In this document: in pieces, positions 18,320-18,447 of the stretch
How the letters are laid out: every line of letters begins with the position of its first letter
Position numbering within the stretch: the first letter of the stretch is position 1
NCBI GenBank assembly: GCA_937871685.1
Contig: CALMOL010000128.1
Location: 1-40,593 of the forward strand
Length of the DNA: 40,593 nt
Origin: an uncultured Verrucomicrobiota bacterium
GTDB lineage: Bacteria > Verrucomicrobiota > Verrucomicrobiia > Chthoniobacterales > SZAS-18
Direction of reading: 5' to 3'
Translations under genes and position numbers: made by a program
The notes under the pieces: model-generated
Told to the model about the DNA's origin: nothing
Database searches by the model: none
Seen by the model: the letters and a program-made list of their open reading frames with translations, nothing else

Positions 18320-18447
18320 TAAGCCTCAAGCTTCAAGCTTCAAGGAAGGGCCGAAAGGAAGAAGGGGCAGGCAAGGCAAAAACGCTTCGGTGTGCCTTTC
18401 ATTCTTTCGGCCTTCCACCTTCCTTGAAGCTTGATGCTTGAAGCTTA
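18320..18447. repeat. heptamer-repeat hairpin element (CAAGCTT arms) in a divergent intergenic region
   Basis: Left arm taagcctcaagcttcaagcttcaaggaagg versus right arm ccttccttgaagcttgatgcttgaagctta. The centre is also self-complementary (ccgaaagg...cctttc..ttcgg). Confidence 0.75.

Follow-up and report, generated by a model that had tools for sequence, protein, structure and literature searches.

The window analyzed here is a 40,593-nucleotide (nt) stretch of DNA from an uncultured Verrucomicrobiota bacterium, the first 40.6 kilobases (kb) of a 64.4-kb metagenomic contig (CALMOL010000128.1) of which the first 50.3 kb was read. Its G+C content is 67.7%, and between its genes lie long palindromes whose arms are tandem arrays of 7-nt units. 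The neighboring genes are ordinary housekeeping genes, among them those for ArgH, LigA, a carbon-nitrogen (CN) hydrolase, a cyclophilin, PGI, XseA, a HemW-like radical-SAM enzyme, Fpg, and a NUDIX protein; the nearest match to LigA, at 66% identity, is in Chthoniobacteraceae genome bins within the Verrucomicrobiota. An earlier note on this DNA had described heptamer hairpins in at least ten gaps, and nine full elements (E1 to E9) and one half-element were all located where it had placed them. A degenerate CAAGCTT element (E10, contig ∼41625-41785) and a further half-element (contig ∼43040-43150) lie beyond the window. The elements behave like fast-evolving selfish repeat DNA and not like conserved regulatory RNA.

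The element at the center of the earlier description, E3 (18293-18474, core 18320-18447), is of the CAAGCTT type and lies in the divergent gap between ArgH and LigA. Its 57-nt arms are 84% complementary (z scores of -9.4 and -11.9), and the palindrome covers the entire gap from the ArgH start at 18305 to the LigA start at 18462, so that its symmetry takes in both ATGs and their CTTCyCTCCCC leaders. The order within 18320-18447 is (CAAGCTT)n, a purine-rich core, a pyrimidine-rich core, and (AAGCTTG)n. E5 (21850-22010; z = -6.4), likewise of the CAAGCTT type, separates the divergent CN-hydrolase and PPIase genes. The third divergent gap holds the half-element (34876-34923), in which one pyrimidine-rich GTGAGAA-type arm (34876-34887) is followed by a 36-nt micro-element; the arm ends ∼13 nt upstream of the probable TTG start of the HemW-like gene (34862), and no partner arm is present at this site.

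Two elements are in convergent gaps and five in co-directional gaps, so all three orientations listed by the earlier note are represented. E1 (1776-1919; GGATGGA type; 43-nt arms, 86%; z = -7.9) separates a dynamin-like GTPase gene from the NUDIX gene, and E4 (20783-20936; GAAACTC type; 47-nt arms, 91%; z = -11.8) separates LigA from the CN-hydrolase gene. The co-directional elements on the minus strand (-,-) are E2 (2367-2524; AGTTGAG/CTCAACT type; NUDIX/Fpg; z = -5.3), E7 (30955-31085; GTGAGAA type; glyoxalase/peptidase-MA; z = -3.3), E8 (33600-33735; GTGAATC type; XseA/HemW-like gene; z = -5.9), and E9 (40350-40482; GTGAGAA type; cystathionine beta-synthase-like gene/ArfB; z = -9.5). E6 (24292-24456; GTGAGAA type; z = -6.2) lies in a (+,+) gap between a poly(A) polymerase-family gene and that for PGI. 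Stop codons were said to lie often inside the distal arm, and they are indeed found in or at it: the TGA of the gene upstream of E6 (24307-24309) is inside the purine arm, the Fpg stop (2521-2523) abuts the right arm of E2, the stop at 31075-31077 is at the arm of E7, and the right arm of E1 encodes the last 17 codons of NUDIX. The left arm of E2 is degenerate, with ∼2 units versus 4 on the right, and the right arm of E7 is partly eroded.

Tandem Repeats Finder detected period-7 arrays at both arms of each site, and an inverted-repeat search gave an arm complementarity of 82 to 91%. Our own period-7 detector found 13 arrays in the window, every one inside a named element, compared with 0.14 on average and at most 2 in 200 dinucleotide-preserving shuffles. 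Zero arrays were found in the window by a detector of the same design set to periods 8 to 12. Head-to-tail 7-nt units in such excess over chance (13 versus 0.14) are a property of heptanucleotide repeats of the simple sequence repeat (SSR) or short tandemly repeated repetitive (STRR) type. When folded as single strands, the nine full elements gave free energies (ΔG) between -51 and -100 kcal/mol and z scores between -3.3 and -11.8; not one of 200 shuffles folded as well. Chance or artifact was ruled out by these shuffles and by the recurrence of the elements in the independent assembly of a close relative. Each element is a single long imperfect palindrome of 110 to 180 nt; the 55- to 90-nt center of the earlier description is not a loop but is itself largely paired. 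Inverted pairs account for 9 of the 10 elements in the window, and the density is ∼1 element per 4 to 5 kb.

Arrays are confined to gaps in the window, again as in SSR/STRR-type repeats, and over the 50.3 kb read they occupy 10 of the 27 gaps of 51 to 310 nt. None of the 7 gaps within a lower-GC stretch with tRNA and HNH endonuclease genes (3.4 to 16.9 kb) contains an array, versus 10 of 20 outside it. This stretch looks like a mobile or phage-derived island, and the absence of elements from it is expected for resident repeat DNA. The elements occupy their gaps from stop codon to start codon, with the purine arm starting 0 to 22 nt past adjacent stop codons and the pyrimidine arm ending ∼8 to 27 nt upstream of the start at seven adjacent genes (∼8 to 12 nt at E7 and E8) and 65 nt upstream for PGI at E6. 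In every element, the purine-rich arm is 5' and the pyrimidine-rich arm 3' on either strand. Because the palindrome reads purine-first on both strands, a purine arm lies on the stop side and a pyrimidine arm on the start side; the claim that the arm beside a gene start is pyrimidine-rich in the sense of that gene is true but follows automatically from this fixed polarity.

A Shine-Dalgarno-like motif (GGAG, GAGG, or AGGA at -20 to -4) precedes only 4 of the 32 usable gene starts in the window, and the leaders are C/U-rich, as in the cttcctctccttatcctccgccc-ATG preceding PGI. This pattern suggests that translation initiation in this lineage is largely independent of Shine-Dalgarno pairing, and, since the leaders are C/U-rich and lack such motifs, the pyrimidine arms look like normal leaders. 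On the stop side, three GTGAGAA units supply TGA in all three frames, so the closeness of these arrays to stop codons is partly forced.

The arm units fall into families: GGATGGA (E1), AGTTGAG (E2), CAAGCTT (E3, E5, and E10), GAAACTC (E4), GTGAGAA (E6, E7, E9, and the half-element), and GTGAATC (E8). The elements as a whole have no sequence in common. With at least six arm units, there is no single 20- to 40-nt palindrome of the kind that defines repetitive extragenic palindromic (REP) sequences and the REP doublets known as REPINs, and the contrast that the earlier note drew with REP sequences and bacterial interspersed mosaic elements (BIMEs), which have one conserved sequence, is upheld. 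Its description of a constant design with varying units also stands, but because sequence is shared within families, it overstated the independence of the elements. E6, E7, and E9 have in common a 14-nt super-unit (GTGAGAA GTGAnnG) and a GTGG inner end (GTGAGAAGTGG), and their centers are mutually unrelated. E3 and E5 have in common 44-nt arms, the core, and a CTTCCCTCCCC-ATG flank. In E4, variant units are mirrored across the two arms.

We compared this genome with a close relative, represented by a metagenomic contig (L081 and L205) with ∼88% DNA identity that is syntenic with the window at 27 to 44 kb. E1 and the element in the XseA|HemW gap of the relative (L205) have arm stretches of 18 to 25 nt in common and unrelated centers; within a family, then, the arms are conserved and the centers are not. 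Of eight comparable gaps, four carry the same family in both genomes (E5, E6, E7, and E9), two carry different families, and two differ by presence or absence. In the XseA|HemW gap, the window has a GTGAATC element (E8) and the relative one of the GGATGGA type. In the hyp402|PPIase2 gap, a decayed half of a GGATGGA element is all that this genome has, and L205 has a near-perfect GTGAATC palindrome of ∼200 nt (ΔG, -152). E10 is missing in the relative, where its gap is 36 nt with a small GC hairpin, and the ArfB|AhpC gap contains an element in the relative only.

Orthologues of E5, E7, E8, and E9 differ by indels or replacement, and this variation in length and sequence at the same gaps (window versus L081/L205) is a further SSR/STRR-type property. 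The E5 orthologue (L081) has an extra ∼47-nt insertion that starts with the micro-element motif. In the E7 orthologue (L081/L205), the center is wholly different and the arms are kept, in better condition than in the window. Decay is seen in copies E2, E7, and E10. Synteny with the relative ends exactly at E4 (window 20774-20952 versus L081 10904-11195); past the hydrolase gene, the relative has a different and very stable palindrome of ∼300 nt (ΔG, -179) with a micro-element copy, followed by an SIS/CBS gene and not by LigA. The array density is 3.2 per 10 kb in the window versus 0.09 per 10 kb in nine other Verrucomicrobia loci (L082, whose hydrolase has 78% amino acid identity, and L001-L005, L014, L063, and L080), more distant relatives that are without the elements; this points to a gain in the present lineage. 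No significant hairpin is formed by the L082 orthologue of the divergent gap (z = -1.2), and an ancestral hairpin that later gained heptamers was rejected on this ground.

The 36-nt micro-element (consensus CCGAGCGAAGCGAGACAGCCAGGGTGCnnGGGGCAA) is present in 10 copies in ∼80 kb of the two genomes. One copy (33678-33713, minus strand; CCGAGCGAGGCGAGACAGCCAGGGTGAATGGGGCAA) interrupts the right arm of E8, and others are at 34888-34923 (plus strand) and contig ∼43075-43110 (minus strand); copies in the relative are at L081 9934-9969 and 10977-11012 and at L205 2429, 2606, 4342, 5211, and 11909. Those within recognizable heptamer arms are all at the inner end of the purine arm, in the arm's own orientation, and this placement is identical in GTGAGAA, GTGAATC, GGATGGA, and CAAGCTT elements. 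When checked for target-site duplication, the copies are flanked by similar heptamers, as expected inside an array. The purine arm of E9 carries a micro-element in the relative (L205) and none in the window, which makes it an insertion polymorphism. The near-perfect ∼200-nt palindrome of the relative has one micro-element per arm, both with the private variant GACGGCC, which indicates DNA-level copying from arm to arm.

We then asked what the comparison says about RNA structure. E6 was the sole orthologous pair that aligned cleanly, and of its 11 changed pairs, 4 kept a wobble pair, 7 were broken, and none was compensatory; the earlier note had proposed comparing genomes to see whether the arms co-evolve. 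A comparison of the two strands by fold energy and G-U count revealed no bias to the transcribed strand, and selection on one RNA strand was rejected accordingly; the untranscribed strand folds better in E2, E6, E7, and E9, that is, in 4 of the 5 co-directional gaps with firm flanking genes. Searches of Rfam 15 returned only tRNAs plus one unrelated small RNA; no hairpin of the window or of 15 further loci was matched, nor did a search of 33560-35000 by E value match one, ruling out a known RNA family. Since elements fill divergent gaps in this manner, both promoters must lie inside the element; a sigma-70 scan of 17500-35500 detected no promoter-like sites, and inspection by eye of the TTGAAG arms of E3 and E5 found no consistent -10 for a -35/-10 pair. 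Canonical U-tract terminators are present elsewhere in the window (22679-22713 and 27007-27040), which places the hairpins in a separate class; no U-tract terminator was found at the base of a heptamer hairpin, terminator-like sites being only within element centers or elsewhere. The suggestion of a mechanism or selection acting on structure and 7-nt periodicity is borne out for a 7-nt-specific process but not for selection on structure, given the zero compensatory changes, the strand result, the decay, and the turnover.

The wider distribution is patchy. A scan of metagenome contigs for GTGAGAAGTGAGAAGTG gave at least 120 loci with G+C contents of 25 to 72%. Among the matches listed, there were 46 inverted heptamer pairs, 42 purine-first and 3 pyrimidine-first, and of the 56 pairs outside the lineage, 16 were in co-directional, 9 in convergent, and 2 in divergent gaps and 3 were inside open reading frames (ORFs); the remaining 26 were unclassified, being close to the end of a contig or >300 nt away from any called gene. 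The purine arms typically start -13 to +15 nt from the stop codon. The densest locus among these matches is L112, from "Desulfobacteraceae bacterium IS3," which spans the S3-to-L17 ribosomal-protein, SecY, and RpoA operon region and has GTGAGAA hairpins exactly between a stop codon and the Shine-Dalgarno motif of the following gene. In a comparison of Desulfonema-group loci (L112, L208, L209, and L210), heptamer hairpins or arrays were found in most intercistronic gaps of the spc/alpha ribosomal-protein operons of "Desulfobacteraceae bacterium IS3" and Desulfonema magnum. In a genome whose SecY is 94% identical, the unit in the SecY|infA gap is not the same, most gaps of D. magnum have other units, and units differ between gaps and between species (SecY identities of 94% and 88%). 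In D. ishimotonii, the ribosomal-protein operons contain no arrays and the gaps are much shorter. These operons show the same turnover dynamics as the lineage studied here. Vicinamibacterales (1.5 arrays per 10 kb) and some Bacteroidota commonly carry heptamer arrays as well, and none were found in 218 kb of haloarchaeal, Salinivenus, and chlamydial loci.

The closest described system is that of Xanthomonas (Rehm et al. 2015, PMC4692102), whose genomes each contain 183 to 186 GGGAATC heptamer arrays, ∼90% of them intergenic and mostly of ∼4 copies, with 70 to 75 cases per genome of two nearby inverted arrays. Those arrays are mostly transcribed and vary across related species, and no function was found; the intergenic GGGGAYT heptamer repeats of Nostoc belong with the same type (PMC4692102). 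Our elements resemble them in having tandem 7-nt units, intergenic position beside housekeeping genes, inverted pairs, and variation at the same gap between species. The G/purine-rich strand, too, lies just past the stop on the coding strand or before the start on the noncoding strand (PMC4692102). Xanthomonas has one dominant G-rich unit with G-quadruplex potential, whereas here at least six units occur in 40 kb and lack G-runs; here, moreover, nearly all arrays are paired, the center is self-complementary, the gap is filled from stop to start, divergent gaps are not avoided, and a 36-nt micro-element is nested. Inverted heptamer arrays with the same gene-relative polarity are therefore already known from Xanthomonas (PMC4692102), and the design is not new. 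What is new here is the phylum, the many unit families per genome, the whole-gap palindromes, the documented turnover, and the nested micro-element.

A second system consists of direct TAACTGA arrays in marine Beggiatoaceae, some Cyanobacteria, and Bacteroidetes (MacGregor 2015, PMC4679880), which lie just upstream of start codons, including those in ribosomal-protein operons, and for which binding by S1 or cold-shock proteins was suggested. The two systems share arrays a few nucleotides from starts, few canonical ribosome-binding sites in such gaps, stop codons in the unit, and a patchy phylogeny; there, direct arrays of one unit predominate, with a single inverted case in the BOGUAY genome, whereas inverted hairpin pairs are the rule here (PMC4679880). 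Both papers cite a 2007 observation that, among long simple repeats, those with heptanucleotide units are over-represented most strongly in many bacterial genomes, and both mention a proposed preference of polymerase slippage for 7 nt (PMC4692102, PMC4679880). Like REP/BIME sequences and REPINs (Bertels and Rainey 2011, PMC3116915), our elements form intergenic inverted doublets in which the arms are conserved and the spacer less so, at high copy number, without target-site duplication, and absent from recently acquired DNA. Unlike REPINs (PMC3116915), they have tandem heptamer arms of varying number and type and use divergent gaps, and no gene for a REP-associated tyrosine transposase (RAYT) was seen in 50 kb. 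Intrastrand triplex motifs (PMC4666352) were judged not relevant.

In the literature, we found no bacterial GTGAGAA/TTCTCAC repeats and nothing on heptamer arrays in Verrucomicrobia. In cyanobacteria, the STRR heptanucleotide repeats and the dispersed small repeats described by Elhai et al. in 2008 reportedly include several heptamer units per genome. The latter are said to be insertions of tens of nucleotides with mobile-element properties, comparable to the nested 36-nt element, in a different phylum and with different units. Drosophila foldback (FB) transposons have long inverted arms of short tandem repeats, a variable center, and copies of variable size. They are eukaryotic, kilobase sized, and built of 10- to 31-bp subrepeats, and their likeness to the hairpins is architectural only, with no homology implied.

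On balance, the elements are probably noncoding, DNA-level, foldback-like palindromic repeats that are tolerated as transcribed intergenic hairpins. Such a reading fits better than an RNA device with the conserved arms and hypervariable centers, the coexistence of young and decayed copies, and the mirrored arm variants. It also fits better with the swaps and the gain or loss of elements at 12% divergence, with their absence from relatives and from the probable foreign island, and with the lack of both compensatory change and strand bias. The elements are almost certainly transcribed within mRNAs, where the hairpins would be only passive, at most acting as 3'-end or intercistronic stabilizers.

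We propose that elements would be born, or copied into intergenic gaps, as near-perfect palindromes. Their arms could be held alike for a time by DNA-level copying between arms, through intrastrand template switching or gene conversion, and not by selection on an RNA fold; point mutation and indels would then bring decay, followed by deletion or replacement by another family. The heptamer periodicity may come from a lineage-specific generating process, either slippage that favors 7 nt or an enzyme acting on hairpin or single-stranded DNA. Elements may persist at gene boundaries because their fixed polarity suits both neighbors, with a stop-rich purine arm after genes and a leader-like pyrimidine arm before them. 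In such positions, they have to allow both promoter function and read-through of operons. The anatomy, polarity, family structure, turnover, absence of compensatory change, mirrored arm variants, and patchy distribution were observed in the sequences; the generating or mobilizing process and the neutrality of the elements are inferred.

Several observations weigh against such a DNA-level origin. Pfam calls on the 50.3 kb of contig revealed no transposase, RAYT, or IS200-like gene, and neither of the two filled-versus-empty sites has a target-site duplication or a clean insertion boundary. Half of the comparable gaps (4 of 8) retain the same element, so mobility is not rapid, and the lack of compensatory change rests on one well-aligned orthologous pair. 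The occupation of whole gaps, and of ribosomal-protein gaps in another phylum, is compatible with expression and could be useful. Both the stop-proximal purine arms (-13 to +15 nt) and the purine-first polarity of 42 to 3, among the matches listed, are regularities that would also be predicted by a function.

The main alternative explanation, which we consider unlikely yet worth serious attention, is that the elements are functional RNA hairpins. They would serve either in bidirectional, factor-independent termination or, like REP sequences, as barriers that shield the upstream mRNA from 3' exonucleases or uncouple adjacent cistrons. Their purine-to-pyrimidine polarity would then mirror the A-tract/U-tract layout of bidirectional terminators. 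We give this explanation weight because of the tight placement near stop codons (0 to 22 nt past stops in the window, mostly -13 to +15 nt in other genomes), the polarity that crosses phyla (purine-first in 42 of the 45 polar GTGAGAA-scan pairs from unrelated metagenomic loci, among the matches listed), and the presence in ribosomal-protein operons, where hairpins are tolerated between a stop codon and the next Shine-Dalgarno motif. The stems are very stable, convergent (9) and co-directional (16) gaps far exceed divergent ones (2) among the matches listed elsewhere, and the Xanthomonas arrays are mostly transcribed (PMC4692102). Against these points, the stems have no U-tract, though U-tract terminators exist in the same window, and the location is not that of intrinsic terminators: E3 and E5 are divergent, as is the half-element, and the pyrimidine arm either stops within ∼8 to 12 nt of the next start (E7 and E8) or abuts the next Shine-Dalgarno motif (the ribosomal-protein gaps of L112), so close that efficient termination there would silence the downstream gene. 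The zero compensatory changes, the frequently better folding of the antisense strand, and the swaps, losses, or absence of elements in close relatives are likewise contrary to it, and the TGA in GTGAGAA arrays accounts for part of the closeness to stop codons.

A bolder extension of the foldback-like reading, which we think rather improbable, is that the hairpins and the nested micro-element together constitute an unrecognized prokaryotic mobile system acting on hairpin or single-stranded DNA, a bacterial "foldback" class. If so, the heptamer arrays would arise as a side effect of its chemistry, such as through repeated 7-bp duplication or through footprints left where a junction is preferred. 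Such a system would explain why a 7-nt periodicity recurs with unrelated units in Verrucomicrobiota, Acidobacteriota, Bacteroidota, the Desulfonema group, Xanthomonas, and cyanobacteria, as well as the gain and loss between close relatives and the fixed position of the micro-element at the inner end of the purine arm, in a single orientation.

The 2015 papers gave no function or origin for heptanucleotide repeats (PMC4692102, PMC4679880), and this locus with its close relative offers an unusually clean view of them. Lodged between housekeeping and ribosomal-protein genes, the hairpins are either passengers that do remarkably little harm or an intercistronic device of general use. Sharp contrasts between close relatives, such as those between this lineage and its 78%-identity relative and between Desulfonema magnum and D. 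ishimotonii, make the old question "why seven?" testable by phylogenetic profiling for the gene responsible.

Doubtful in our view is a role for the elements as platforms for single-strand binders with an oligonucleotide/oligosaccharide-binding (OB) fold, such as a cold-shock protein or S1, which would bind one per 7-nt pyrimidine unit, melt the hairpin, and control downstream translation or read-through. The strict 7-nt register with varying unit sequence is in keeping with this role, as are pyrimidine arms shortly before seven starts, C/U-rich leaders, and the scarcity of Shine-Dalgarno-like motifs. The same idea was put forward for TAACTGA repeats (MacGregor 2015, PMC4679880), where Bacillus subtilis CspB is noted to bind heptamer repeats, with each unit taking one protein and T-rich heptamers being preferred. 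However, GGATGGA, AGTTGAG, CAAGCTT, GAAACTC, GTGAGAA, and GTGAATC have no motif in common, neither arm precedes a start codon in the convergent gaps of E1 and E4, turnover and family swaps at one gene pair speak against gene-specific regulation, and the Desulfonema-like hairpins precede genes with normal Shine-Dalgarno motifs.

Classical MITEs (transposable elements of miniature size with inverted repeats), which derive by deletion from a DDE-type insertion sequence whose transposase recognizes their terminal inverted repeats and moves them in trans, would likewise have inverted arms, high density (one element per 4 to 5 kb), presence or absence that differs between relatives, and a putative foreign island free of elements, but they are highly improbable here, because the arms lack flanking direct repeats, target-site duplications, and defined termini, they consist of tandem arrays that vary in length and not of a fixed terminal repeat, the internal sequence is not conserved among copies (the centers of E6/E7/E9 and of E1/L205 are unrelated, and that of E7 was replaced), and 50 kb of contig contains no related insertion sequence.

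Other repeats and genes of the window are recorded here for completeness. The putative island includes 12 tRNA genes, all on the plus strand at 3445-7815 (Met, Asp, Val, Ile, Phe, Asn, Arg, Lys, Ser, Leu, Arg, and Gln), in a lower-GC stretch (58 to 66%) beside the HNH endonuclease gene (7886-8551) and a gene for an extracytoplasmic function (ECF)-type sigma factor. A perfect 42-nt inverted repeat lies at 6822-6968 in the same stretch. Also inside the island, in the convergent gap between a 168-amino-acid ORF and an OmpH-like gene, is a near-perfect hairpin (10264-10365) with 31-nt arms that are 97% complementary and without heptamer periodicity. Two Uma2-family (PF05685) putative endonuclease genes, at 36655-37227 (plus strand) and 38411-38926 (minus strand), lie on either side of a cystathionine gamma-synthase-like gene; in a third relative (L206), a 505-nt stretch without a called gene is found where the upstream copy would be. 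At 26458-26932, a 178-nt tandem repeat of 2.5 copies encompasses about three small lipoprotein-like ORFs (e.g., MKTARLLAALTLALATLAQTACNTTAGAGRDVSAVGRGVTNAATGR), which we take to resemble entericidin-type lipoproteins. Finally, two long intergenic arrays with a 22-nt period at 16350-16725 and 30073-30425 form a second and distinct class of repeats, which may be REP/BIME-like. Their units are short palindromes of the GGTCATGCGCATGACC and GTCCTCGCGAGGAC types, they fill convergent gaps of 0.7 to 1.0 kb, and the array at 30073-30425 is conserved in the close relative (L081 1393-1779).

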